Below are positions 33,864 to 60,001 of a stretch of DNA of 64,000 nucleotides, piece by piece; the stretch's first letter is position 1, and each line of letters starts with the position of its first letter. Origin of the DNA: Massalongia carnosa (lineage: Eukaryota); the NCBI GenBank assembly GCA_965645245.1, contig OZ287076.1:1302001-1366000 (forward strand). The letters are read 5' to 3'. Below the pieces are notes generated by a model that saw nothing but the letters and a program-made list of their open reading frames with translations, was not told where the DNA came from and ran no database searches. The translations under genes were made by a program, and so were the position numbers.

Positions 33864-33913
33864 AATACTTAGTCCGCAGACCAAGCTCTATTCTACTATA
33901 ACGTATCTTATAA

Positions 33914-34025
33914 CCGGATGAACTTTATCACCGGATGAACTTTATCACCGGATGAACTTTATCACCGGATGAACTTTATCACCGGATGAACTTTATCACC
34001 GGATGAACTTTATCACCGGATGAAC
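33914..34025 (+). repeat. Tandem array of a 17-bp unit in the left TIR
   Basis: CCGGATGAACTTTATCA x6 plus a partial unit; about two inverted units at 39285-39317. Confidence 0.95.
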
Positions 34026-36039
34026 ACACCCATCAAAATCAACCCACAATATTCCAATTAGTCTAAAATGGTCAACGAAGCAGCTATTCAGGAAGCGATT
34101 ATTGATTTAAAATCCCAGAAAGCTCCTAATTTTGCTGTTACTGCTAAAAAGCATAGCGTACCTCGTTTGACCTTAACGCGTCGCTTCAAAGGCGAAACCG
34201 TCTCGAGCGCCGAAGCTCACTCTAGACATCATAAGCTACTGACCAATGCTCAAGAATCGGTCCTCATTGAGCATATTCGAAAGCTTTCGGACCGGGGTAT
34301 TCATCCCACTCCTCAAATACTCGAAATCTGGTTGTGGAGTTCGTGAGAAAGCACGTCGGGAAGTGCTGGGTCTATCGATTTCTAGAGCGCTACGAAAATG
34401 AGCTTACAAGCGTATATCTACGCAATATCGACCAATCTAGGCATATTGCGGATAATTCTAAGCATTTTGAATATTACTTTGCAGTCGTACTAGCCCATTT
34501 CCCCTCATTTCCCTATAATCTATGCTTATGCCGCTGAACTGAGCCTAGACTCCCTAGCTCCAGGAGAAGATCGAAAAATACCACATCAAGCCCTCGAACA
34601 TATACAACTTCGATGAAAAAGGCTTCCTAATGGGTATATGTCGTACTATGAAGCGTATCGTACCGATTGATCACCTTCGAAGCAAAAAGACGCTCGGTTC
34701 GAGTCAGGACGGATCTCGCGAGTTCATCTCCCTTTTGGCTACGATTTGCGCCGACGGTAGCGCTCTAACACCAGCTTTAATCTATCAGGGGATTCGTACG
34801 ATCTACAAGATACCTGGCTCGAAGATTATGACTGCTCATCAAATGAAGCTTACTTTGCTGTATCCAAAAAGGGCTGGACCAATGAAGAACTGGGGCTTTC
34901 CTGGCTTTCAAAGCTTTTCGAACCGATTACGCGCAAAAAGGCAGGTAACGCTAGGCGCCTATTGATTATGGATGGTCATTCGAGCCATGTAAACATGAAG
35001 TTTATCGAGTTATGCGATAATCATAGGATTATTCTAGCTATTTTGCCCCCGCATTCTACACATCGGTTACAGCCCCTGGATGTTGGAATCTTCTCACCGC
35101 TCTCTACCGCCTATTCGAACCAAATTGACCATTTGATCCAGTCGAGCCAGGGCTTCTCTCGAGTTACTAAGCGTAGCTTTTAGTCTATGTTCCGTACGGC
35201 ATGGAAAACAGCCCTAAGCTTCGAAAATATACGCTCAGCTTTCGCTGCCACTGCGGTTTACCCACTATGCCCCGAAAAAGTTATAAACCAGCTCAAAAGG
35301 AAGACTCCATCACCGATTCAAAGCGATAGCGAATCTAAGAAAAAGACTCCGGGCTCCGTACGAGGTGTACGAAGAGCAGTCAAAGCGATTCGATCCGAAA
35401 CGACCGACATAGCTGCAGGACTGGATTTGATGATTCGAGCAAGCGAGAAACTAGCAATTAAAAATGATATACTGGAACACGAGATTATTGGGCTTCGTAC
35501 AGCACTAGTAGACGAAAAAAAACGCCGGAGAAGGGGGAAACCGATGGGTCTATTTGTCAAAGATGAGCCCGGGCAGGCTATATTCTTTTCTCCGGCTAAA
35601 ATTGCTGCGGTTCGGACCCGTCAAGAGGAGCTCGAGGCTCAGAAAGAACAGGAGAAGCTTGAAAAGGAAGTACAGCGTCAAAATCGGGCTGCTGAGAGGG
35701 AGCGCAAAGCTCAGGAAGCTCAGGAACGGCGCGAAACTAGGCAGAAGACTCGGGCTGAAAAGCTGGAGCAGAAGCAGCGTGAAAAAGAAGCTCGTACGAA
35801 GCAGAAGGAGCTTAACAAGCAGCTTAGGCTTAAAGAGCAGTCAGAAAAGGATCAACAGAAACAAGCTGCTATAGCTGGAAAGCGAAAACTGGAGGATCCA
35901 CCTCATATAGAGCCGAAACTGCCCGAAACGAGAGTAGCTCGTAGCGGGCGCACTGTAGTAGTTCCTTCTAAGTTTAAGGAGTAGAAAATAGCTGTATCGT
36001 GTTCGTACAATGCTATTTACCCTTTCATATGCTTTTTAT

Positions 36040-39217: not shown

Positions 39218-40031
39218 ATAGCTTTATATTCATTGTTCATCGGATATTCTAGTTTTAGGTCGTAATTACCATTTCTGGAGGGGTGTTCATCCGGTGATAA
39301 AGTTTATCCGGTGATAAAATACGTTAACTGGGACTCATGCTATGTTCGCTGTAGGTCCTGCCGTCCGCACCACGCATGGTCGAACCGTTACACTACCGCC
39401 CGTCTAGCTGCGGCTAGCCCCTAGCCGCTTCCAGTTATAGTTAGCCCCGAAGAATGGGCTCTTCTTAGCATACGGCCCTCGCCGATCCGACTTAGAGAGT
39501 TTTCATCCAACGCTTTCCTGTTTCGTCCTAGCTTCAGTCCGTCGAAGCAAGGCGAAAAAGCGAGGAACTCAGGTCAGGAATCGAACTCACGACTAGTACA
39601 CCGATTGATGACTAAGTATTCTGTGACGAAGCGAGATAGTAAATAGATTTCTACCATTGCGCCACCTGTCCTTCCCGACCAAAAGGCACAATACTTAGTC
39701 CGCAGACTAAGCTCTATTCTACTATAACTGGGACTAATGCTATGTTCGCTATAGGTCCTGCCGTCCGCACCACGCATGGTCGGACCGTTACATATGCCAA
39801 AGAATTCGATATTTCACCTCGTCTATTTCAAAGAAGACTACATGGATATAACAAGCGAAAGGTAGTCAATATGAGGCTGTCTGCTATACTAGAACTAGTC
39901 CGGAAAGAGTATATTGAATTTCTTGATGATATTGAATTATCAATGAAATTGCTATTGATTCGCGGTGCAGCTAATTATTTGTGGCAATTGTAATATCCTT
40001 CCTCGTCTCTATCTTCTCTCACCCGCGTAGG

Positions 40032-40733: not shown

Positions 40734-41275
40734 TGTAACGGTTCGACCAAGCGTGGTACGGACGGCAGGACCTACAGCGTATATAACAGGAGTCCCAGTT
40801 ATAGTAGAATAGAGCTTGGTCTGCGGACTAAGTACTGTGCCTTTAGTCGGGAAGGAAATAGCGCAATGGTAGAAATCTATTCACTATCTCGCTTCGTCAC
40901 AGAATACTTAGTCATCAATCGGTATACTAGTCGATTCCTGACCTGAGTTCCTCGCTTTTTCGCCTTGCTTCGACGGACTGAAGCTAGGACGAAACGGGAA
41001 ATCGTTGGATGAAAACTCTCTAAGTCGGATCGGCGAGGGCCGTACACTAAGAAGAGCCTATTCTTCGGGGCTAACTATAACTGGAAGCGGCTAGGGGCTA
41101 GCCGCAGCTAGACGGGCGGTAGTGTAACGGTTCGACCATGCGTGGTGCGGATGGGAGAACCTATAGCGAATATAGCAAGAGTCCCAGTTATAGTAAAATA
41201 GAGTATTCTACCTTTTGGTTAGGAAGGACAGGTGGCGCAATGGTAGAAATCTATTTACTATCTCGCTTCGTCACA
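40734..41275 (+). mobile_element. TRIM copy B (diverged, flanks do not match)
   Basis: LTRs 40734-40901 and 41123-41275 around the same internal domain; flanks GAATA / CAATT. Confidence 0.88.
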
Positions 41276-44058
41276 CAATTCACTAGTTAACGAGACAAAC
41301 CGCTCAACGGGACTAACTTAATTTCGCTTAATTCTTGATGCCTCCCTCCAACCAATTTTACATACAGTTTCGGCTTCAATATCTAATAATTGTAAAAATA
41401 ATTTTATCTGCATGTAAGTTTACTAAAACAATCACATTTTACGTGGTAGACGAATAATAAGACCCCGTCTGGTAGTTTTAACCTCCTTCACCACTTCAAC
41501 CACCTCTACCACATCAACTACCTCTATCACCTTTACCACCTCTACCACCTCCACCATCTCAACAACCTCTACTACCTCAACTACCTCCACCACCTCAACT
41601 ACCTCGACTACCTCAACTACCTCCACCACCTCAACCACCTCTACCACCTCAACAATCTCTACCACTTCAACTACCTCCAGCACTTCAACTACATCTACTA
41701 TTTCAACTACCTCTACTATCTCCTTTGCCCCTTCTACCGTCTCTGTCACCCCCATGATTTGATAAAGCATGAAGGGGGGTAACAAATATTCTTTTGAAGG
41801 ACTTATAGGCCTTCTTTGTAAATTATAGGGAAATTTTTGAGGACTATTCGTAGGAGATGTAGACTTTTGTCCTAGTAAATTAGGCCCAAATCGACATATT
41901 TCTCTAAAGGTTTTGATAAGATCCTGCTCAGCTCGTTTCAACTGAGCGGCCTTCTTTTCATTATCCTTCATCTTCTGTTGAGTTTTAGCTCATTGCTATC
42001 TTTATTGAACGTCTTTGAGGCTCAGAACTCGAGCCTTTCCACGATAGTAAGCACCACTACGATTAGCTCAATAATGCCGCCGTAAATTGGCCTAAAGAAG
42101 CTCGTTGTTGGTAATTCGTAGCAAGGTAGAGTCGGCAAATGCGTATTTGGCCCCCTTTATCAATCTGTTTAGCGCTCGGGCGGGTGTTGAGTCTGAATTC
42201 TTATCAGATCGAATTCGACGAATCAATTGATCTTATTGATCGATATTTGCAGGTGTTTTTCTACCTCGATAACAGCTTTCTAAGAATTCTGAATTGTCGG
42301 AGTGTCAGGGTCAGAGACCGACGTAGTCTCTGGATCAATTCCGACATTTGTAAAAGTAGAAGTGGTAGTGATAGTGGTGGTAATTATGCTGTTAGTCTTT
42401 CGCAATACCGATTGTTTATTAGTGAGTTTCTGAAGAACTAGAGAAGGATTATATAATACTAATCCGGTGACTCTCTACGCAGTGAGCACATTTATAGTTT
42501 TGATTGCTCCTTTTCTTGCTTTTTGTATGATCTTCAAAAAGTCTACCTTGTCAATCGAACAAACGTTAAACTGAATGACGGCCTACAGTTGTTTTTTATA
42601 CTCCCGAGACAGGGGACCGAAAACGCTCACGTCTAGAGGTTGTAGTAAATGTGTAGTATGAGGAGGTAGACAGAGAGGAATTATTTTCTTTTCATTGCAA
42701 AACTTGATAAATTCAGTAGAAATATGAGAAGCATAACCGTCTACTATTAGAAGTCGATAATCACAATTTAAATATTTTGCAGTAGCAGGTTCAAAACATC
42801 TTTTCAACTAATCTGTTATGCTCTATCTAGAGACAAGTCATAGGGACGCTAGAAACGAAATACAATAAAGATAAAGAAGGATAAAGACAACTGACAACCC
42901 GAACCTGCCTCTATATATCCACTATTGCGCTAGTACTCATGTGGTATTAGCGCGGTAGAATCGTCTAGTGACTGCAGGAACAAAAGTTCCTGCGCGTTAC
43001 ATCTACGGTTTGCCCTAGGCGGTGCCGAGTTTATCCGAGTACCGAGGTTGTAGAGAGTAGAATCGTAACACAATCGATACCTAGTTCGTTATCTGTCTAT
43101 CCGTTTTCGCTGGTAGCGATTTCGCTATGAATATCTTCCAGAGCATCAAACCAGGCCTTCAGTTTGTTTACCCCTTTGAAAATTACGAAGAGGGGTAGAC
43201 TGCGTCTAGTAGCAGAAATAGCCTGGATTAATGACACCTATTCTCGATTACCTGATTGTGCTGAAAAGGCCTGCTTTTCGTGCTTAGATATTAACACTTT
43301 AACACTAGCGGCTACCCCTATCATGAATCCTTTTTTATCCATATTGTAGATGTCTTCATTAAGAGTTCCGTGTTTTTGTTTGACGGAAAGAAAAAGCTCG
43401 AAATAATATTTAAAAACCTCTTCGTTCTCCGCAAATAACCGTTCTTGATTTAATGTGCGACTATATTTGGCCTGCAAATCGGGATAAAGATGTAAAATAT
43501 GCTGTTGCCAATTAACTCCTAGGGCAGTATGATTTCCCCTTGCTCGCAATAATTCGATAGCCATCTGACGCAATTGAGCGACTTTAACAGGCCAGCCCCA
43601 GGCGTACAATTGTAAAACCCAGTCCTTCAAAGCGTTCTCTTCTTCGGGTATCAATAGCTGTCTAACTTGATCGGATCAAAATCGTGGTTGACGACCCTGA
43701 ATGCGAGCATAAATTGTAGACTTTAAAACGCCATACAGAGCAGCTGCTTTCGTGATGGAAAGAGTCTTGTCGGTCTGTTTCCAGGCCAGAAATGCTGATT
43801 GTAATCGTTATTGATACGCGGAGGTAGGGTGGGAAGAAGGAAGCTTGGATATTTTTTCAGAGGTAGGTTTTTTACAAACAGCCATAATTATAGTTTTTAA
43901 TAAGATTATATTGATTTGTTTTACTATTTGAAGCTACTTTTGTATGGAAAATATATGATGAAAAAAAAGGCTTCAACATGTAAGATAGTCCAAAAATAAA
44001 TATTTCGGATTTTCTTAGTCCCGTTGAGCGGTTTGTCCGGTTGACTAGTGAATTACGT
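41276..44058 (-). mobile_element. pogo/Fot1-like transposon (degenerate)
   Basis: TIR ACGTAATTCACTAGTCAACCGGACAAACCGCTCAACGGGACTAA ending at 44058 (+TA), truncated copy at 41276. DIYNMDKKGF, LLIVDGYASH, PPHTTHLLQPLDVSVF. Confidence 0.88.
42814..43070 (-). mobile_element. Solo LTR (257 bp), 21248/49217 family
   Basis: TGTTATG...CGTAACA; TSD TAATC/CAATC. Confidence 0.88.
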
Positions 44059-46046: not shown

Positions 46047-48431
46047 ACGTAATTGCCACCTATTCGGGCCAGCCACCTATTCGGGCCAGCCACCTATTCG
46101 GGCCGGCCACCCGCAAATTTCACCATCATCGCCAAATAGAGAAACACCATCAGCGCATTACCTCTATCAGCATCAAAACTAGCTAAAAACATCACTGTCC
46201 ATGGCTAATTCCTTCCAGGCAATCTTCGCGAACTTCACTTTCCCATTTAAAGCATGATATCGTGCCTTTTGTTGGCCAATGCTTCATCCTTTTGCCTCTT
46301 CTCCTCTACCAACTCCCGTTCTTTACCCACCGTCAGCACTTTTGCTTTTCCATGCCCTTTTCTAGACGTCTTTTGACGTCGTTGATCCTGTTTGGCTGTG
46401 ACGAAGCGAGATAGTGAATAGATTTCTACCATTGCGCCACCTGTCCTTCCCGACCAAAAGGCACAATACTTAGTCCGCAGACCAAGCTCTATTCTACTAT
46501 AACTGGGACCTGCTATGTTCGCTGTAGGTCCTGCCGTCCGCACCACGCTTGGTCGAACCGTTACACTACCGCCCGTCTAGCTGCGGCTAGCCCCTAGCCG
46601 CTTCCAGTTATAGTTAGCCCCGAAGAATGGGCTCTTCTTAGCGTACCGCCCTCGCCGATCCGACTTAGAGAGTTTTCATCCAACGCTTTCCCGTTTCGTC
46701 CTAGCTACAGTCCGTCGAAGCAAGGCGAAAAAGCGAGGAACTCAGGTCAGGAATCGAACTCACGACAAGTATACCGATTGATGACTAAGTATTCTGTGAC
46801 GAAGCGAGATAGTGAATAGATTTCTACCATTGCGCCACCTGTCCTTCCCGACCAAAAGGCACAATACTTAGTCCGCAGACCAAGCTCTATTCTACTATAA
46901 CTGGGACCTGCTATGTTCGCTGTAGGTCCTGCCGTCCGCACCACGCTTGGTCGAACCGTTACATTGGCAATCAATTCCTGATTGGTATGCTGTAAAATAA
47001 TTCTATCTGCAACAGCATTCAAAGCGGTTGTTTTTAGAACATCAACATGCGCGCGGAGAGACGGAGTCATACGAGTCAACAAAACGTCGCTGGCCTCTTG
47101 AATCCGTTTGGTCGTTTTGGGAGTGACATTATTGACGTCGCGACAAGATGGAGGAGTGACTGTTCTAGGTAATTTGTCTATAACATGCTGAGGATTGTAG
47201 GGAACCAGACCTGTTCCTCGCCAGGCACTCAGGATGTTGGTGGTGGACATGGCCTGTTTTCTTGCGACCTGAATTAGATTTAGAAATTCCACCTTCGAGA
47301 CGTTTACGACCCCGTAACGAGATCTGCTAGAAACTAATTGCTTGTAGGCCTTACTCAATGGTCCAAAAACACCCACGTCTAATGGTTGCAATAGATGGGT
47401 GGAATGAGGAGGTAGACACAAGGGTACAATCTTGTTTTGATCGCAGAACTCCATGAATTCCATTGTGATATGACTGTCATGCCTATCGACAATCAACAGT
47501 CTATAAACCCCTTTAGTGCGACTTGTTTGTGGATGGAAAACTTCTTTTAACCAATGCAAAGCTATTTCCCGGTCCGTCCATCCATTGGGACTGACCCGAA
47601 TAGTTGTTTTCTCATCCGTAATGGCTGCATACCAGGCTTGCTGAATCTGAGCACCTTGAAATATGATATAAGCAGGAAGAATACTCCCGCGAGAGGATAT
47701 ACACTCAATTAAAGTGACCCAATCCCTGTTTCCTGGATGCACATTGAAAGGTGCTGTATTACCTCTTATTATGACCTTAGAACTGTCCGCAATGCCCATG
47801 GCGAATCCTTTTTTATCCATGTTGTATATATCTGCATCTGCGACACCGTATTTCTCGCGAGTGGTCATGTACAAATCAAACCAATCCTTCATGATAACAG
47901 GGTCGCTGGCGTCTTTTCTGACCTGATCCAAATTTCTATTGTATTTTAACTTGAATTCAGGATGTCTGTTCAAAAAGTTTTTATACCAATGGTGTCCAAG
48001 CGCTTTTCGATCCCCTTTGGCCTCCATCAAACTCTTAGCCATGCCTTCAAGATGTATAATTCGAGGGGGCCAGCCCCATGCAGTCATTCTTTCAATCCAT
48101 GTAATCAGTGCTTGTTCCTCCTGTACGGATAGTCTTTGCATAGTTTGATGATAGGATTTTGCAGGTTGTCTCCCCCGTAAACGAGCTTGAAGCGTCGATC
48201 GAGGAATGTCATAAACACGGGCGATTTCTCGTTGTGATATATTGGGATTTTCCCGCAAATATTCAACAGCTAATTCTAAACGAGTATTAGAATCTGATAC
48301 ATCTAATTTTGAATTTATTTGAATATTGTTGGATGGTGGTGATGAATGATAATGGAAAAGAATTAGGTAGCCAGTAGATTTTGATGGGGCGGCCCGAGTA
48401 GGTGGCTGGCCCGAATAGATGGCAATTACGT
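46047..48431 (-). mobile_element. pogo/Fot1-like transposon, near-complete ORF, 3' end interrupted by TRIM C
   Basis: TIR ACGTAATTGCCA(C/T)CTATTCGGGCCAGCCACCTA, TA on both sides. HTH (YDIPRSTLQARLRG), YNMDKKGF, LIVDRHDSH, QPLDVGVFGPL. Confidence 0.92.
46397..46963 (-). mobile_element. TRIM copy C, intact (567 bp)
   Basis: Two 169-bp LTRs (46397-46565, 46795-46963) that appear identical, TG...CA ends, 229-bp non-coding interior, perfect TSD TTGGC, PPT-like AGACGGGCGGTAG. Confidence 0.95.
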
Positions 48432-48449
48432 TAGAAGGTTCCATGACGA

Positions 48450-48758
48450 TGTGGAGGGGTGGAGTAGACCTCCACCAGATGGCCAGATGACAGGCGTGAT
48501 AACTGTACGCGAGGGTCAGTCCTACCGAACACCATTGCCGGAAGTCACATGATCGCTCCCTGTGCCGTCAGTTATATACCCGCTCGCCACTTCTTCCGTT
48601 CAGTTTGTCTCTTCATCTCTTCATCTAGCCAGCTAGTCAGTGCGCACGTAGCAACATAACGACGACGATGACCTGATTATTCATTTCTTTTTTATTTAAT
48701 GGCCCAGTGACAGTACGATTGATTCATAAACGCACACCACCTAGTTTATCCTCCTTTA
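48450..48758. mobile_element. LTR-like insertion (~310 bp)
   Basis: TGTGGAGG...CCTCCTTT(A) inserted between duplicated (G/A)ACGA within the host LTR; right end decayed. Confidence 0.6.
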
Positions 48759-49278
48759 ACGACTATACCATATGGGTACTAGCGCAGTAGAGTATATATA
48801 GGGGCAGGTTCTGGTTATCGATTGTCTTTTTCCTTCTCCATCTTTATAGTATTCGTTTCTAGTATCCCTATGACTTGTCTCTAGGTAGATCATAACAATT
48901 TGATTTTGAATAGCTTCATTTTAAAAGGGTCAATCAATTGGTATAATGTAAATAGTTTGAGAAATGCGTCATGGAGATGATAACGTAATAGAGATAAGCT
49001 GCATTTAGAGCGTAACTCCGGGAGCGGTCCATCGGATTTACCTCGGTCGCACGGTTATTCTGACATCAACATTTACGAGCATAAGACGATTCGAAAATAT
49101 ACGATTTTATGAACAAGTGATAACAACACGAAAGAAATACGACGAGAAAATTTCATTAAATATTGTGAACACATTAACGTTGATTTAAAAAATCAATTAT
49201 TAAACGTGATCAATTGTGTCACGATTCTACCTTTTGCCTTTAGTAACTAAGCCTAATAGAGCACCTACGGAAACCGTA

Positions 49279-49348
49279 ATCGTGCTAAACCACTTTCGGA
49301 ATGGAAGGGCATCCCTTACCTTCCATTCCGAAAGTGGTTTAGCACGAT
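49279..49348. mobile_element. 70-bp hairpin MITE in the 5' LTR
   Basis: Perfect 30-bp inverted repeats with a 10-bp spacer; TA duplicated relative to the 3' LTR (CCGTA|GACGG). Confidence 0.92.
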
Positions 49349-50927
49349 TAGACGGACCTGTCGGCCGGCCGGCAGGAGTCACGAGATAGCGCGGAAAACT
49401 CTTTCGCGACCTTACTGAATGGGGACTAGAGAGCGCGTTGCTTTATAGGGAACGAGTCCGACTTTTCGAGTCTTTCTTTCCTCTTTATCTTTATTGTTTT
49501 CGTTCATGGCGTCCCTATGACTAGCCTCTAGGTAGACCGTAACATTACAATAAAGATCATACTTCAAACTACTATCCCATGTGAAGGATATAAAAGAATT
49601 CACCTGACAAACAAGATATTGATACCGACACCGGGAATCAGACATCGAAGAGAGACGACCACCGAAACTGAACCCAAGATACTAGACACCGATAATCAGA
49701 CATCAGCCTATAGCATGGCACGATCAACTGGGACCAAGGTCCCAAGACACCGAGACTCGATAATTCCCGAGACTAGAGAGACAGAGGACGAACTAGAGGT
49801 AACGGAGCCTCTGATGATTGTAAACCTCAGACAGCTGAAGGCATGGATGGAGCATGACCCTCAGGCCGTGTCCGACATGCTCCAAAACCTTAAGGAATCA
49901 TACAACGACTCCGTGGAACGAGGCAACCGAGCCATTGACATGGCCGAAGGATCTCAGACCAGAATGAACCAGCTGGAGGGCGTGGTGTCCTACCAGAAAG
50001 AAGAAATCAGAGAATTACAAGGCCGGCCCCCCGGGGCCAGCACGGAATCGAGCAGAAGCGAGAGTCTTCCCGTAGCAGTCGTCGCAGCGACGACAGTAGG
50101 AAGAGATCGATGAAACTGCCTGACCCGCCCATCTTCACCGACGGAAAGGAAATCTCCATAGACCACTGGCTGACAAAGATGCGGAGTAAACTAGCAGCCA
50201 ATGATGACCATATGCCGTCGGAACTGCTTAAGAAGGCATACGTGGAGAACCGGGTAGGAGGAGAGGCAATGGGACACCTGGAACCCCGACTTCGGAAAGG
50301 TGCGATGAAGCCCTTTCTGACGGCCGAGGAAATGTTTGATCAATTGGAACGCACATACGGCGACCCCAATCGAAAACAAACTGTGATGAACGACTTTCGA
50401 GCTCTTCGTCAAGGAAGCAAGGACTTCAACACCTTTTGGGCTGAGTTTCAGCGTCTGGCAGCTGAGCTAGACCATAACGAGGCTACGCTAATTACTGAGT
50501 TGAGGCACAAGCTTTCTTGGTGAATGAATCGGCAATTGGCCACCGGTGCCGAGGCACCAACCGATCTGTATGAGTTCGCGCACAAGTGTCAGCGCTTGTA
50601 TCAAGACCTCAAGGAATCGGACCGAAGCAGGGCCAATATGGATCGTTATGCGGAAAGTAAATGGCCCAACACCACTGCCTCGACTTTTAGCGCCCCGACC
50701 ACGACGACGACAGCCTCCACCATCAAGACATATATCCCTCCCCATCCCGCCATCACGACCACGACCCCCAGGCCCTCTTCTTACATGACGGATGAAGAAA
50801 AGGAACGATTGAGCAGGGAAGGTCGTTGTTTCTTTTGCAAGGAGCATGGACATTTGTCCAGAGATTGTGAGCTGAAGAAGAAGAGCCGGCCAGCGAAAGT
50901 GCAGGAAATCGCTGAGATTGCGGACTT

Positions 50928-50966
50928 GGGAAAAGAGTGACCTTCATCAAAGACACAGATGAAGGT
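50928..50966 (+). promoter_or_regulatory. Putative -1 programmed ribosomal frameshift signal (gag-pol)
   Basis: G GGA AAA slippery heptamer in the gag frame just before the gag stop, then a 9-bp stem ACCTTCATC/GATGAAGGT 5 nt downstream. Confidence 0.75.
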
Positions 50967-53477
50967 GAACCAGTGTTGATTTCGTCAAGCTGTTTACCCG
51001 GTGATTTGTTCACCGACGAACCCTGGTCATACAATGTAGACTGGGCAATAGCGAAGAAATAAAAGTGATGGGTCTATTGGACACAGGTGCCACTGGGCAC
51101 GCTTTTATTGATGAATCAACAGCGCGTGAAGTTTGTGAAAAGCTTCAGATCTCCCCTCAAAAACTGACCAGACCAAAACCAGTAAAAGGTTTTGACGGTA
51201 AACGAGGCAAAGACATTACTCATGCCATCTACCCTATCCTGACCGTACAAAGCCATAAGGAAACTATAGCTCCTCTTCTAATCACGCAGCTGGGGCAACA
51301 CAAGATGATTCTGGGAAAACCCTGGATGAGAAAGCATGGAGTGATTATTGACATGGCCACAGACCAAATAACTTTCTGGCCAGGTCATTGTTCCCATTCT
51401 GGAGCCCCTCAGCTGCCCAAGGAGGAAAAGATGATGAAGGAGTCCGAAGCGGCTAGAACGACCATGAAAATACTGAAACGACCCGAAGAGGCAAGAACGA
51501 ATACGAAGGAATCAGAGAAAACTAGTCCAGAACAGCTCAGTTCGTCAGAGGTATTATCTAACAAAGCTGACGTTGGACTATCAGAAAGACTATCAGGCTC
51601 TGGAACCGAGGATAAGCCGACTCTCGAAGATAAACCGATAGAAATGGCGATGATAGGGGCTGCTGCGTACCGACTGCTGTCTAGACAAAAGAATGTCGAG
51701 TTGTTCTCCATCTCCTTGAAAGACATCGAGTATCAACTGAGCAAGGAAGACCGCCCGCCAACTGATCCAAAAACGATAGTTCCCCCCGAGTACCACGAAT
51801 TCCTGGATGTCTTCTCCAAGGCCGCATCCGATACTCTGGCACCTCATCGAACCCATGATCACAGAATCGTTCTGGAAGGAGACAAAGATCACGGGCATAG
51901 TCCGCTTCGGAGCATATCGCAGAAGGAATTGGAGTTCGTCAAGAAATATCTTGAGGACAACCTTCAAAAGGGCTTCATTGAGGCGAGTCATGCTGCGTGC
52001 GCTTCCCCTATTCTGTTAGCCAAGAAGCCAAACGGAGGCCTTCGTTTTCTGTGTCGATTATCGGAGGCTGAATCAGTTATCGAAGAAAGATCGCTACCCC
52101 ATTCCCCTGATAGAAGAAACCCTGGCACAGCTGAAAGAGGCTAAGCTCTTCTCCAAGATTGACATTCGGCAAGCGTTTCACAAGCTCAGGATGGCCATAG
52201 AATCCGAAGATCTGACCACGTTCAACTCTCGTTTTGGTGCCTATAAATATAAGGTACTACCATTCGGACTTTCTGGCGGACCAGCTTCCTGGCAGCACTA
52301 CATTAACGATGTGTTATTCGATTATCTATAAAATTTCTGCACGGCTTACCTAGACGACATCCTCATTTACAGCAAGAATCTGAAGGAACATCGGGAGCAC
52401 GTCCGGGCCGTTCTAATCAAACTTCGAGAAGCGGGACTGCAAGCAGACGTTGACAAATGCGAATTTCATGTGACGGAAACCAAGTACTTGGGACTGATCA
52501 TTAGCGTCGATGGCATTCGCATGGACCCAGCTAAAGTCAAGGCCATTCAGGAATGGGAAATCCCAACTTGCCTACGTGAGGTCAGGTCGTTTATTGGTTT
52601 TTGCAACTTCTACCGACGATTCATTAGAGGTTTCTCGAAGATCGCCAAATCCTTGAACGCACTGACGAAGAAAGAACGTATCTTTGAATAGACTTCAGCA
52701 TGTGAAAAGGCATTTCGGACTCTGCAGAAACGAATTGGCGAATCCCCAATTCTGATACACTTCGATCGAGACAAGCAGTGTTACTTGGAAACGGACTCTT
52801 CGGACCACGTCAATGGTGGCGTGCTTTCACAAATAGGGGATGACGGCGAGCTTCACCCAGTTGCGTTCTTCTCCAAGAACATGAGCCCTGCTGAGTGCAA
52901 CTACGAAATCTACGACAAGGAACTGCTGGCGATCATCCGCTGCTTTGAACAATGGAAACCGGAACTGGAAGGCACCGATTTACCAGTGAAGATCTTCACT
53001 GATCATCGAAGTCTAGAGTATTTCATGTTTACCAAAAGCTGAGCAGAAGACAGGCTCGCTGGGCGGAGTTCCTCTCGGAGTTCAATTTCGTCATCACATA
53101 TCGCCCGGGCAAGAAAAACGAAAAGGCAGACTCTCTGACCCGAAGACACAACGACAAAACTCAAAACGAGGAAGACGAACGACAACAGCATCAGCTTCAA
53201 ACTCTGTTGCCTCCGGAAAGACTGGAACTACAGCCCATCGAAGAAGCTACGGAACCGAATGAAACCGCCACCGACCCCGCCCCACATACTTTGGACGAAA
53301 AGGTAAAACGAGAAAACCTCAAAGATGAACTCTGCACAAAGATCAGAAAAGCGATGGAAGACGACACCCCCTCGGACAACACCCTGCCAACCATAAAAAA
53401 TTGTACGATAAAAGATGGACTGCTATATGAGCGAGAACGCTTATGGGTCCCGGACAACAAAGGTACAATTCTCGAAG

Positions 53478-54069
53478 GGCCTGCTGGGTCAGAAACCTCT
53501 ACGTGGTGCAGGCTATCAACACCTCCTCGGAGGTGGCCAATAATCTGATCATCGCCAACGCGGAAGTCCACCTCGGTGGCCATTTGAACGATCAACGTCT
53601 CTACTGATCATTCGTCACCTCGAAGGCACACATACAAAGCCCATTCATTCGGAATGGCCACACCCCTCAGGCGGAAGCCTTTCACCTCATCGAAAAAGCC
53701 CATTCATTTAGAATGGCCACACTTACACACCTTCATTTATACGACACCACGATCTGCCCTCGATCACGGCCAGTCTTTTCTCCATTGAATCAAAACCTTT
53801 AAAGAGAGAGAACGTTCGTCGAACGTGTGGAAATACACTGTCTAGTTCATCGAGTCTATAGGATTCCTAGCGCTTGAAGATCTGGGTGTATGCACCGCGT
53901 GGTAGAAGGACGGTCTCGTTGCGTTCGACATGGAACAAGGGAGTGGTTTGACCCTGGGGGCCAGGTTTCCACTTCCTGACTGTTGTTTATGTACATAAAT
54001 AGCAGTCACAGCGTCATATCCTTAGGATGCATACGCTTAATGAATTAATAATAATAAAATAAATAAAAA
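53478..54069 (+). mobile_element. Non-LTR retroposon insert (5'-truncated LINE 3' end or SINE-like), 592 bp
   Basis: 13-bp TSD ACAATTCTCGAAG (53465-77, 54070-82), (TAA)n/A-rich tail, no recognisable coding domain. Confidence 0.85.
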
Positions 54070-54890
54070 ACAATTCTCGAAGTCGTACGGCAGATTCATG
54101 ATCAAATAGCGGTAGGGCACCCCGGAATAGCCAGGACCATTCAAACGATCTCCCGGAATTATTACTGGCCGAACATGGGCAAAGACGTTAGTCGTTACGT
54201 TCGCAGCTGTCACGTTTGCAGACGGGCAAAAGCACCTAGGATAAATACAACGGGCTACTGAAACCCTTGCCCATACCCGACAAGCCATGGTCTGACATCA
54301 CCCTCGACTATGTGACAGGACTCGCCAAAAGCAAAGGACAGTACGACGCCATCCTGATGGTAGTGGACCGGATGTCAAAGGAAAGGCACTACATTCCATG
54401 CACATGTAGCGACGAAGGAACGATCGCCGAGGCCACAGCGAAGCTACTCATCGACAATGTCTGGCGCCATCAAGGACTTCCGAACAGCATGCTTTCTGAT
54501 CGAGGACCCCAGTTCGTGTCAGCGGTATGGAAGGCCTGGTGCAAAATTCTTGGGATCACAGCGAAACTGTCGACCGCTTATCACCCCGAAACCGATTGAC
54601 AAAGCGAAATAGCAAATCAGGAAATGGAACGTCACCTACGGAGTTTCACAAATTACAACCAGGATGACTGGGTGGACCTGCTTCCGATGGCCGAATTCGC
54701 GGCAAACAGTGCACCGTCGGCCACCACTGGAGTGTCACCGTTCATGGCTACCAAAGGATACGAACCCCGAATAAGTTTCGATCTGGTCGAGCTGTCTGCT
54801 TCTTCCACCAGAGAAAGGTTGGCCAACGCCAAAGCTAGGGCCATCACGGACGACATGCAAAAAGTCTGGAACTTCGTCAAACAAAACATG

Positions 54891-57800
54891 TGTCAAATGT
54901 CAGCATTAACCAACATTGGTCAACGGGCCCGTCACATGCCCGTCACATGATATTGCCACCGCGGCACAGGTAAAATTCTTCATCCCCCACATTCTTTCTT
55001 CCTTCGGAGACATCTCTTGCTCTATCCCCTGGCGGCATACCTAGCTAGAAAATCATTTATAGATCAATGCCATTCAGTTCACCTCATCTGGTCAAGACGT
55101 AAACCATCTCAACTGATCATCAGGGCAAAAAGCCTCAGAGTTATGAGCCCGGATTCTCGCTTCTATCGTCTTGACCACTTCTTGAATCTTTAAAAAAGCC
55201 ACCTTTTGGCACTTATTCAGAAGCCATAACTTGGCACCTTCAGCATTTTTCGAAATCAGCCCTTTTTCGAAATACAATATCAGCAATGTCGGCATCGCCC
55301 AGAAAAATCGTCTTGGCTAAATCGGCCGACTGGAGAACATAGTTTTCCTTCATCCAGATAAAGGAAGAAAGTCTAGAAATTTGGGATGAGGTTAACCCGA
55401 ATGAGCCATTTAAGGAGTCGTTAAAACGGCTAGAGATACCAAATTTTCCAATCTCGGAAAATGATGATGATGAAGTTGAGGCAGGAAAGTATCAAATGCT
55501 TCAACTGAAAACTCAGCTATACAGATTAAAATTGGACGAATACAAAGTTCGAAAAGCAGCACTAACTGAGCTGACATCCAACATTCTAGAAAGTCTGTCG
55601 ACCGAATACGGCGTTTATTTGGAAGATATAAACCAAAAAAGAGGACATCCATGGAAATACTGACGGCACTGAAGCAAAGAATTGCTCCATCTGATGCCGC
55701 CCAAATTCGGGACATTGAGACCAAATACGAGAAGCTCAAAAAGGGACCAGGAAATCAAAATTTGGAGATATACATCGAGCAGGGGCAGAGGACATACACT
55801 GACGCTATCAATAATAAGCTTTTTGAGGCAGAGGGGCAACGAGCTCATCGACACTTTCTCCTGGCTATTCGGGAAAAGGAGACTAACTTTGCCGATACCA
55901 TGCTGATCAATCTAAATAGGGAGCCGGACATGGACTTCTATAAATTGCTGGAAGAATTCCGACAATTCGTCCGGTATCAAAAAGCTGAAAAAGGGGAGTC
56001 CCATTCCGCCTTTTCTGCTAATTCCAACCAGTCTTCCTCATCTAATCACGGACCCACATTTAATGGTCAGCGACCGGCTAGATCACCTTGCATTTGCGGC
56101 AAAGATCATGCCCTAGGTCATTGCTGGCACCTAGTGCCTGACCATCCCCGCCGACCGCACAATTTCAAAACGAGTCCCGAAATCCAATCCCGAATCGATG
56201 ACGCTATGAAGGATAAGGCATTCTGGGAGAAGGTAGAAAAATCTATACAAACCTGCAAAGAAAAAGCTAGGACTAGTCAGAATAATCAGGGGCAAAAGAA
56301 TCAGGATCAGAAAGGGCAGAAAAATAACACGATACCGGAGGGTGGAAATGCCACCTTTGCAGCTTTTTGCAGCACTTCCTTTTCAGCGGCAAATAGCTTA
56401 GTCATCAAGGGGTCATGGATTCTAGATAATGGATCCAATCGGCACATTTGCAATGAGACCATGAAATCGCGTATAGTAAAGACGCGAGATGCATCAAAAG
56501 ATGACTATTTGGCAGCCGGGGCCAACTACCTAAAAATAGAATTCTACGGAACCATCAGAATCAACCGTCCTGCCCCATCTGGACCATGGATAATTACATT
56601 AGTCGACGTCGCCTACGTCCCTAGATTCATGACAAATGTCGTCGCTCAGCATTTATTCAATGTAAAAGGGGTACACTTTGACGATTGGAAAATGCACCTG
56701 CATAGGGAAGGAAAGACTGTCGCATGGGTTAAACCACTAAATGGGCACTTCTTACTGGAAGACAACACTGAGGGGGTGTTCAATCAGTCATTTGCAACAG
56801 GGCAAAATTCCGCTGCAGCTAAAGAGAAAGAAAATGCCAAATCTGCACCTTCCTATTAATGGTATCAGATGTTGGCACATGCGTCAAATGACGCCATTCA
56901 GCATTTACAGGCATCAGCTGAGGGGGTGAAGATTGCTGATTCAGCAGCTGCCCCTACAATTCCCAAAACCAATGAGTGCGAAACATGCGCACTTTCAAGA
57001 ATGCACAGAATCATCTCTAGGTCAGCGGAAAATGCCGAAACGGCAGCCCTACCTTTTCATCGAATCACATACGACTTAATTCCATTGAACCCTGCCTATA
57101 ACAAAGATGAATGGGTCTCTCATTTCGCCTGCCATTGGACCAATTTTAACATGGTTTTTACTCATCCAAAGAAATCAGATGCGACGCGGATAGTAAAAGA
57201 GGCACTTAATTTGATCGAGACTAGATTCAATGGAAAAGTAGTCTTCTTTCGGACTGACGGCGAGAAATCTTTGGGAGGTGATTTTCGAGAATTACTTATA
57301 GAAAAAGGGATTACTTACGAACCAGCTGCACCTTATTCGCCGGAGCAGAATGGGCACTCAGAAAGAAAAGGGGGAATTTTGACCCCAAAAGTACGTGCTA
57401 TGCGGATGGATGCAAATCTTCCTACATTTCTTTAGCCGGAAATTTTTCGGAATACCGGCTATATAGCAAATCGGACTCCTATGGGAAAATATCAATGGAA
57501 AACGCCATACCAGATGGTCCACAAGACCCGTCCAAACTTAACACATTTACATGTTTATGGCTACAAAGCTTATGCCTTAAATAAGCAAATTTCGAAGAAG
57601 GAAAAGTTGAAAGAAAGAGCTCACATCGGACATTTGGTTGGTTATGATGCTCGCAACATTTTTCGCATTTGGATACCATCTCAACGGAAGGTAATACGGA
57701 CTAGAGACGTTATTTTCGATGACAGCACTAGATACGATCCTTATGACATAGATGTCATGCAGGTAATTTCCGAGCCAATGCTGCCATTACCAGAGACGTT

Positions 57801-58963
57801 TGAAATTCCGAATCTTCTTACTGATTTGGCGCGAATTACCGAGGTGGAATCAGATTTAGAAGATGAGATAAATCTGCATGCGGAGCAAAACCAGCAATCT
57901 ATAGAAAAAGAGCAAATGCCAGCATCTGGCAATTCCCCAAATGACTCCGCAAATGACTCCGCATCACATGACTCAGCAAAAGACAAAACATTCGAATATT
58001 TGCCATCTCCCTTACTATCTGAAGCAACCCCGCCACCTGACCCTAAACCATCTCAAAAAGAGAAGAAAGTTATTGGTCTAGAATTGGACCAGGCAAATAT
58101 CTTGCCTGAGGGGGTGAGACGGGAAAGAAAAGGCAGAAAACAGGCTTATTTCGCTGCCTTGAAAGATGCCGAAAATGGAGAAGTTATCTCCTTTCATTCC
58201 TCATTTGCAGCATTTGCAAAATCATTATTCTTTACTAAATTTTCTCAGCATCGCCTACATAGAGATTCCCTACCTGTGGAATCAAAGCAGAAGACGGTCA
58301 CCACTAGCAGTACGGAAGCGGAATTGCTCGCCATCTTATCGACAGGAAAGGAGCTCATCTGGTGGACGCGTCTTTTTCAAGAGATAAATCTAGATTTGCA
58401 GATGATGCCAAACATTCAATGCGACAATCGGCAGACAATTAGGGCACTGACGGAAAATAAACTGGTGACCAAGCTTCGCCATGTCGACATCCATAAACAT
58501 TGGCTCCGCCAAGAAATTGCAAAGGATCGTATCAAAATTCAATGGGTGCCCACTGCCACAATTCTGGCAGATGGATTGACGAAGGCATTGCCGCCTCAAA
58601 GACATGCTTCATTTGTCAAATTACTAGGCCTGAAAGGGCAACATTATAAAGATATAAAAGAAGGATGATAAAGATTATTGCAGATGATCTTCATCAAGGG
58701 GGTGTGTCAAATGTCAGCTATACTGGCATTAACCAACATTGGTCAACGGGCCCGTCACATGCCCGTCACATGACATTGCCACCGCGGCACAGGTAAAAAT
58801 TCTTCATCCCCCACATTCTTTCTTCCTTCGGAGACATCTCTTGATCTATCCCCTGGCGGCATACCTGGCTAGAAAATCATCTATAGATCAATGCCATTCA
58901 GTTCACCTCATCTGGTCAAGACGTAAACCATCTCAACTGATCATCAGGGCAAAAAGCCTCAGA
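54891..58963 (+). mobile_element. Ty1/copia retrotransposon with the reverse transcriptase deleted
   Basis: LTRs 54891-55139 and 58705-58963, TSD ACATG, PBS GTTATGAGCCC, PPT CAAGGGGGTG. Protease WILDNGSNRHICN, integrase FRTDGEK/YSPEQNGHSER, RNase H TTSSTEAELLA...LADGLTK. Confidence 0.93.
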
Positions 58964-59831
58964 ACATGGAACGAGCTCAGGAAAGGCAAAGAACAGCGGC
59001 TAACCGACACCGGACGGAAATCTCTTACGAGGAAGGAGACATGGTGTGGCTGTCAACCAAGAATATCAAGCCTGAACGGGCATGCAAGAAACTAGAGCAC
59101 AAGATGATTGGTCCCTACCGAGTCAAGAAATTGGTAGGATCATCCTGTCAACTGGAGCTTCCACCCTCAATGAAAATACACGATGTGTTCCACACCAGTT
59201 TGCTCTAGAAAGTCGCAGATGACCATCTTCCTAGCCAGATAAACGACCCACCTCCACCGGTAGTTGTCGAAGGGAATGATAAATGGGAACTAGACGACAT
59301 ATTAGACGCTCGGAAACGCTACCGGAAGATTCAGTACAAGGTCAAGTGGAAAGGAATTGACGAAGAACTGACATGGTACGATGCTGACGGCTTCGAAAAT
59401 GCAGAAGAGCTAGTGGAAGACTTTTACCAACGACACCCTAACAAACCACGATAAGAAATGGCAGTTCTAACCGCATCAAATCTCGACGATCAGAACCCGG
59501 GGATAACGCGGACGTTATCGCGGTCAGGTGACTCGCGATCTAAAGCAGGGGGTAGTGTCACGATACTTACTACCTTTTGCCTTTAGGAAATAAGCCTAAA
59601 CGAGCACTTACGGAAACCGTAGACGGACCTGTCGGCCGGCCGGCAGGAGTCACGAGATAGCGCGGAAAACTCTTTCGCGACCTTACTGAATGGGGACTAG
59701 AGAGCGCGTTGCTTTATAGGGAACGAGTCCGACTTTTCGAGTCTTTCTTTCCTCTTTATCTTTATTGTTTTCGTTCATGGCGTCCCTATGACTAGCCTCT
59801 AGGTAGACCGTAACAAATTGTAATCAATTAG

Positions 59832-60001
59832 TGTGACGGTTCGACCATGAGTGGTGCGGACAGCAGCACCTACAGCGAATATAGCAGGAGTCCCAGTTAT
59901 AGTAGAATAGAGCTTGGTCTGCGGACTAAGTATTGTGCCTTTTGGTCGGGAGGACAGGTGGCGCAATGGAAGAAATCTATTCACTATCTCGCTTCGTCAC
60001 A
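59832..60001 (+). mobile_element. Solo LTR of the TRIM family
   Basis: TGTGACGGTTCGACC...CTTCGTCACA; flanks ATTAG / TTCAG do not match. Confidence 0.9.

Follow-up and report, generated by a model that had tools for sequence, protein, structure and literature searches.

Taken together, our observations describe an element that, judged from its sequence, appears to be a self-primed TRIM with a split tRNA-derived promoter signature, a variant within the TRIMp3 kind. It lies in the window, the whole 64,000-nt stretch of DNA analysed, and we propose with good confidence that its leader holds the decayed remains of one tRNA gene, interrupted by the LTR end and the PBS. Element positions (el) are counted from window position 46963 along the minus strand, and the features on which the argument rests are the following.

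46397-46963, minus strand: whole TRIM; total length 567 nt, made up of two identical LTRs of 169 nt (TGTAAC..GTCACA) and a non-coding interior of 229 nt
46795-46963, minus strand: 5' LTR (el 1-169)
46397-46565, minus strand: 3' LTR (el 399-567); A box present, no B box behind it
46964-46968, minus strand: target-site duplication GCCAA, 5 bp, upstream copy
46392-46396, minus strand: target-site duplication, downstream copy
46893-46900, minus strand: TATA-like TTATAGTA (el 64-71), of putative function; its TATA begins 26 nt upstream of the self-primer and 62 nt upstream of the A box
46863-46873, minus strand: self-primer segment (el 91-101), exact complement of the PBS and presumed 5' end of the element RNA
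46854-46857, minus strand: T4 run (el 107-110), with a second occurrence in the 3' LTR at el 505-508; possibly a weak Pol III stop
46843-46854, minus strand: degenerate second A-box-like stretch (el 110-121), lacking an A14 equivalent, at +20 from the self-primer
46838-46844, minus strand: GGACAGG, acceptor-stem-like 5' strand (el 120-126)
46827-46837, minus strand: A box TGGCGCAATGG (el 127-137), within the LTR
46824-46837, minus strand: A box plus 3 nt (el 127-140), the 14-nt identity to host tRNA genes
46783-46793, minus strand: PBS (el 171-181), 1 nt past the LTR end, complementary to el 91-101
46751-46766, minus strand: T-arm-like stretch including the B box (el 198-213), the 16-nt identity to the host tRNA-Met(CAT) gene L069
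46751-46759, minus strand: interior B box GTTCGATTC (el 205-213), separated from the A box by 67 nt and from the LTR end by 35 nt
46745-46751, minus strand: CCTGACC (el 213-219), pairing 6/7 with GGACAGG
46728-46732, minus strand: T5 (el 232-236), possible Pol III terminator, 18 nt after the B box
46566-46578, minus strand: purine-rich tract preceding the 3' LTR; tract and LTR start resemble a host chromovirus family
46747-48567, minus strand: Pogo/Fot1-type DDE_1 transposase frame outside the element, the insertion site, its 3' end interrupted by the TRIM

The element has the defining traits of a TRIM, namely a length below 1 kb, two LTRs, a non-coding interior with PBS and PPT, and a target-site duplication (TSD), whose 5-bp length recurs in most full copies of the family. 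The host is Lecanoromycete-like: for one of its proteins, most of the best hits that carry a name belong to lichen-forming ascomycetes, with Pseudocyphellaria aurata at the top (76%). Pattern searches of the genome (52 Mb, 25 contigs) returned 52 exact LTR/PBS junctions, 80 T-arm matches and 81 matches to a neutral interior 20-mer; a few of the matches are not family members, so that about 80 copies keep the interior. The family is young, since the LTR pairs are identical in 12 of the 50 copies having both LTRs and their median divergence is 3.6%. Both boxes fit the consensus in 53 of the 68 copies that cover both. Further members lie in the window:

39325-39792, minus strand: copy A; 3' LTR truncated, A and B boxes intact
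40734-41275, plus strand: copy B; B box hit by an 8-nt deletion
59832-60001, plus strand: solo LTR of the family, A-box region only

The original prediction had reported that copy A keeps the B box and that copy B has lost part of it, and both statements hold.

Regarding insertions in the family, TRIM LTRs or copies were seen inside or beside other copies of their own family at L047, L114/L130 and L028, and the insertions at L047 and L114/L130 fall at el 116-122, just 5' of the A box. Two different LTR elements (L035/L125 and L048/L126) share one 5-bp TRIM site, el 243-247, just past T5; although this looked like targeting, it is probably a coincidence, of which one is unsurprising with an estimated ~15 insertion or break sites over 229 nt. 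Tandem arrays with 9-nt and 17-nt units are also present, at window positions 41453-41756 and 33891-34043.

We propose with high confidence that the TRIM primes its own reverse transcription by a Tf1/sushi-type route, from an RNA that would begin at el 90/91. The PBS, whose nature the original prediction had missed, is not a tRNA site but the exact 11-nt complement of LTR el 91-101, a match length that none of 3000 LTR shuffles reached. This is the layout of Tf1-type elements, in which the PBS can pair with some 11 nt of the LTR that follow a TATA-like site, and the pairing of self-primer and PBS is part of the MFE fold with a probability of 0.73-0.8. Against 30 host tRNA genes, an incomplete set with introns left in, the complementarity of the PBS was at most 7 nt, and internal. 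In the mechanism that we envisage, the non-autonomous TRIM would borrow the proteins of a Tf1/sushi-type chromovirus, presumably its helper, and the first 11 nt of an RNA beginning at el 90/91 would pair with the PBS and be cleaved off as primer.

Rearranged copies also bear on this point. Three of the ~80 copies (L127, L128 and L129) have inversion breakpoints inside the primer/PBS inverted repeat. In particular, L127:1373-2239 (G000:C7) is an integrant of palindromic, head-to-head structure, bounded on either side by a U5 end and flanked by a clean 5-bp TSD, and its turning point is the primer/PBS complement; in L128:771-1125 and L129:2968-9708, R-U5 is inverted before the PBS, the target duplication being established only in L127. 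A second 11-nt inverted repeat (el 60/350) showed no comparable rearrangement in the copy alignments. We infer that, while the RNA was being reverse transcribed, a fold-back or a template switch at one of its ends (el 91 or 102) could have produced the three copies, although they may also reflect DNA-level inversion or assembly error.

Autonomous elements of the same genome provided a control, one of them in the window:

49217-59815, plus strand: Ty3/gypsy chromovirus (RVT_1, RNase H, rve, SH3_Tf2-1, Chromo), likewise with an 11-nt LTR/PBS complement

The control comprised 17 stretches, 6 of them without an LTR pair, and 4 of the 11 pairs are cut or mis-trimmed, their PBS not being judgeable. 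An LTR/PBS complement of 8-13 nt was found in 6 of the 11 autonomous Tf2-like elements (L287, L291, L293, L301, L302 and L303), a count that leaves out an 8-nt complement in L295, for which no LTR end in CA could be resolved. None of the 11 has an A+B pair at the LTR junction. The PBS of the self-priming gypsy element L302 resembles the TRIM primer at 9 of 11 positions, forming nearly the same pair in reverse polarity. As for the chromovirus in the window, it is broken, harbours a nested copia-type element (~54900-58963) and bears a 70-nt palindromic insertion in its 5' LTR (~49279-49348); the PBS of the nested element is complementary to the anticodon region of the host initiator-type tRNA-Met.

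No autonomous element with the LTR or interior of the TRIM was found, which weighs against the model favoured below. In one chromovirus family the end of the PPT and, of the first 14 bases of the LTR, 12 agree with the TRIM; this family is the best helper candidate. Eight further unexplained matches to the PPT and LTR start, and one additional site, yielded no helper: seven are TRIM pieces, chromovirus 3' ends are present in two of the stretches, and one has no family match. The 30 SH3_Tf2-1 loci were likewise discarded as partners, having no sequence in common with the TRIM except one TRIM LTR.

The second component of the leader is its likeness to a tRNA gene. GGACAGG, the A box, the B box and T5 are all present as originally described, and the two boxes indeed occur together only at the 5' LTR plus interior. 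The prediction that the segment is not a tRNA gene also stands: ARAGORN returned no gene in the window, Rfam gave no match at the gathering threshold and none on the TRIM element at E<=10, and the paired D, anticodon and T stems of a cloverleaf were not found. Regarding the acceptor-like pairing, such a pairing exists, but the register first claimed (4 pairs and 1 wobble) is weaker than that with CCTGACC at el 213-219, which forms 6 of 7 Watson-Crick pairs with GGACAGG (P about 0.008).

The A- and B-box consensus patterns applied here are general knowledge and match all 30 host tRNA genes, a set of distinct nuclear genes that is incomplete (63 of 2634 candidates scored). A consensus A+B pair at 35-130 nt arose in 19 of 3000 dinucleotide shuffles. 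The TRIM shares 16 identical nt (el 198-213) with the variable loop and T arm of L069, an elongator-type tRNA-Met(CAT) gene, and 14 identical nt (el 127-140) with positions 8-21 of both the host tRNA-Arg(CCT) gene L087 and L095. An exact match of at least 16 nt to any of the 30 genes appeared in 1 of 3000 shuffles and in none of 297 window tiles outside the family, two of which reached 14 nt. That an ordinary self-primed TRIM resembles a tRNA gene in its boxes by coincidence is, in our view, very improbable. Two A+B consensus pairs are indeed present in the window at sites that do not belong to the family, and many repeats were on offer when the finding was selected, but the rarity of the 16-nt match, the additional 14-nt match and the 6/7 acceptor pairs speak against coincidence, as does the 13-nt T-arm motif, which occurs five times in the Helenus supplement (PMC10886601). 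We regard this explanation as already largely refuted and the boxes as tRNA-like beyond chance.

The A half and the B half match different present-day host tRNAs. Their acceptor pairing (GGACAGG with el 213-219) looks like that of one tRNA unit minus the 3' strand of the T stem, and both halves presumably come from a single tRNA donor. The acceptor 5' strand and the A box would then lie in R/U5, and the T arm with its B box and the acceptor 3' strand in the interior.

In the host genes themselves, L095 (G000:C5:~454900-455013, minus strand) is a tRNA gene with an intron apparently in the D arm rather than in the anticodon loop, and its ARAGORN label, Ile(GAT), is probably mis-called owing to this intron; L093 looks similar, and the labels of both look wrong. 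A lone B-box-like match outside the family (L108/L131, G000:C5:1323863) lies in DNA that looks single-copy.

We tentatively favour the idea that the boxes form a type-2 Pol III promoter in two parts, which come together only at the 5' end of the element and start transcription at the self-primer. According to the available text of bioRxiv 2020.04.17.046805, in yeast the start is followed by the A box at 12-20 nt and preceded by TFIIIB at 25-30 nt, TBP can select within a 20-bp window, and the B box is the high-affinity site. The TATA-like sequence of the TRIM begins 26 nt before el 90/91 and so fits Pol III (TFIIIB) spacing. Two distances count against it: the canonical A box stands at +37 from the self-primer start, as against the usual 12-20 nt, and the TATA-like site lies at -62 from that box, whereas host tRNA genes (29 with upstream sequence) show their AT peak at -50 to -36. 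The degenerate A-like box at +20 is the sole box fitting host geometry. In this model, TFIIIC would bind the B box, found only behind the 5' LTR, and, together with the A box or boxes and the TATA-like site, would position TFIIIB for a Pol III start at the self-primer; the 3' LTR and solo LTRs would then be without a complete promoter.

The end of such an RNA has to be considered as well. T5 suffices for transcript release in yeast, as stated in the available part of PMC13475603, and among the host tRNA genes a run of at least five T lies within 60 nt in 28 of 30, a T4 being met first in 13 of 30. Lying in mid-element, T5 is a serious obstacle to the making of a full-length RNA by Pol III. We envisage that most transcripts would end at T5, with a predicted length of 146 nt if the start is the self-primer, and that read-through to the T4 of the 3' LTR or beyond (at least 418 nt) might yield the replicating RNA.

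An alternative, which we hold to be nearly as likely, is that a self-primed TRIM is transcribed by Pol II from the TATA-like site and that the tRNA halves are an ancestral relic, kept by descent or as leader RNA structure. The relic may come, for example, from an ancestor resembling Helenus, in which the end of the LTR shifted as a self-priming PBS appeared within the tRNA unit. The T5 run, which any full-length Pol III RNA would have to pass, is in line with this alternative, and in a young family relics need not have decayed. Both boxes, moreover, lie in predicted structure: the A box in a U5 hairpin (el 128-161), the B box in a 9-bp helix in which el 111-119 pairs with el 211-219, with a probability of 0.84 after primer removal; T5 in turn falls in one strand of the stem that is predicted for el 229-238 and 271-280. 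Less easily accommodated by a Pol II start is the TATA-to-primer distance, which is 26 nt in the TRIM vs 35, 36, 39, 43, 43 and 44 nt in the six autonomous elements, that is, 9-18 nt shorter.

The original prediction had placed a short Pol III RNA of ~115 nt over the PBS. Such an RNA would have to begin at the would-be mature tRNA end, and yeast geometry gives instead a primary RNA of about 122-130 nt. Adjusted accordingly, the model would combine a Pol II replicating RNA with a short Pol III RNA starting at ~el 107-115 and ending at T5, or else with a TFIIIC-only site that opens or insulates chromatin. Here the spacing from A box to start would be canonical, the A-B distance of 78 nt lies in the host tRNA range (35-127) and T5 has its customary position. 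The upstream DNA, however, fits poorly, since unlike host tRNA genes the TRIM is not AT-rich at 50-36 nt upstream of its A box. Furthermore, with a start near el 110 the primer is missing from the RNA, which so cannot be the replicating one and whose benefit to the element is unclear. We consider this model unlikely. Self-priming is very likely under each of the four readings and is common to all of them.

The conservation of the leader across copies bears on the choice between these models. It was assessed in 78 copies ascertained by the neutral interior 20-mer, with context-specific rates. The B box carries 5 substitutions vs 16.5 expected (8 of 328 windows are as low) and 4 distinct alleles vs 9.4 expected (P=0.04), which places it among the most conserved 9-mers, above the PBS (13 vs 20). 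The A box, with 32 substitutions vs 30.5 expected (observed/expected 1.05), is not conserved; its G18 equivalent is changed in 11 of the counted copies, and in one of the copies (L106) in both LTRs. The earlier expectation that the boxes be more conserved than their flanks, put to the test here, is therefore borne out for the B box and not for the A box. For the remaining parts, the primer has 11 vs 14.3 (observed/expected 0.77, not significant), T5 5 vs 6.3 and the U5 end 39 vs 58.3, and neither the degenerate A-box-like stretch at el 110-121 (observed/expected 1.04) nor the 5' helix partner at el 111-119 (0.95) is conserved. A first count of 2 vs 18 for the B box was rejected as biased, having dropped copies split by nested insertions and ignored mutation context.

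The test is weak and post hoc, with nine regions tested; its power is low because the copies are related and mostly decaying after insertion, so the lack of conservation of the A box does not refute a function, and the B-box signal is suggestive, not decisive. With these limits, the lack of A-box conservation sides with a relic transcribed by Pol II and counts against the split promoter, and a B box that is conserved by itself is what a TFIIIC-only site (ETC sites) would show. That the B box is better conserved than the PBS while its proposed pairing partner is not conserved is nonetheless at odds with the relic reading, and both the conserved B box and the unconserved rival helix partner el 111-119 count in favour of a Pol III start at the self-primer.

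In the copy alignment, CpA sites show C-to-T changes ~3x as often as CpC or CpT sites do, which amounts to a mild RIP-like bias. Contigs from four sequencing runs carry near-identical TRIM sequence, with divergence too low for a conservation test. In a metagenome scan for diverged relatives (at least 120 stretches), none of the stretches listed showed BLAST similarity, a repeated A-box region or a self-complementary PBS; 13 of them were ARAGORN tRNAs, several seemed to belong to one tRNA-derived SINE-like family, and the rest looked chance-like. The multi-copy head of that family (L135, L136, L141, L186, L189, L190, L209, L235 and L237, mostly JAAUYA contigs) has the same A box as the TRIM, and in several copies the T-arm start too, with no LTR structure detected.

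A split promoter, if true, would explain how an LTR element can be driven by Pol III from within and still keep its 3' LTR and solo LTRs silent, and a combination of self-priming with Pol III would demand that the start fall on one nucleotide. Up to ~80 potential TFIIIC sites would then exist in one lichen-fungus genome. If, on the other hand, the boxes are relics, the element would still record a likely switch from tRNA priming to self-priming. A bolder idea, which we put forward as speculative and rather improbable, is that of a distinct class of tRNA-independent Pol III TRIMs, with a promoter assembled only across the junction of 5' LTR and interior, Pol III setting the exact self-priming 5' nucleotide, and the 146-nt product (primer, R, U5, PBS and B box, ending at T5) serving as a dedicated priming RNA. 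Such an RNA would make minus-strand strong-stop DNA alone, or prime longer element RNAs in trans, and the element would thereby encode its own substitute for a tRNA primer.

With respect to known systems, the self-priming of the TRIM has its counterpart in the Tf1/sushi group of Ty3/gypsy elements. Tf1, Tf2, Tj1 and Tcn1 likewise combine an 11-nt complement, between the RNA 5' end (here a presumed one) and a PBS directly past the LTR, with the absence of a tRNA primer; unlike the TRIM, they are autonomous and protein-coding (available parts of PMC7175516, PMC4600332 and PMC6317226). As to the promoter, Cassandra had been named as the analogue, and in fact the tRNA-type Helenus/TRIMp3 elements are closer. 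Cassandra is also a TRIM with Pol III promoter motifs, and its RNA is reported to start within the 5' LTR, end within the 3' LTR and carry a short terminal repeat, as our preferred model requires (PMC7215508 and PMC10886601, in the parts available). Its promoter, however, is of type 1, 5S-derived and wholly contained in each LTR, and its PBS is of tRNA type (PMC7215508, available part); a 5S rRNA-derived LTR domain was not encountered in the TRIM, which gave no Rfam match at E<=10.

Helenus/TRIMp3 elements (Kojima 2024, PMC10886601) have in common with the TRIM a length below 1 kb and tRNA-derived A- and B-box motifs without a functional tRNA, and their fungal families a 5-bp TSD (PMC10886601). 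Besides the shared T-arm motif, the same 7 letters precede the A box in Helenus-1_AmAr (PMC10886601). Both boxes of Helenus, in contrast, lie inside each LTR, where the TRIM has only the A half, and the Helenus PBS is complementary to a tRNA 3' end or anticodon loop, where that of the TRIM is self-complementary (PMC10886601). The fungal families of Helenus are tied to Copia and have been reported from rusts and Agaricomycetes (PMC10886601), whereas here the likely helper is a chromovirus and the host an ascomycete (Lecanoromycete-like); the word 'Ascomycota' has no match in the Helenus supplement (PMC10886601). Since neither both boxes in the LTR nor a tRNA-type PBS was found, we regard the TRIM as a TRIMp3-like candidate and not as Helenus. 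In the part of the literature that lies outside subscription papers and Repbase, as far as its available text goes, we found no account of a TRIM that primes itself and has its two boxes on either side of the LTR end. TRIMp3 elements are few, Cassandra being the only one validated (PMC10886601), and the model proposed here, if true, would extend the tRNA-type TRIMs to ascomycetes and to chromovirus helpers.
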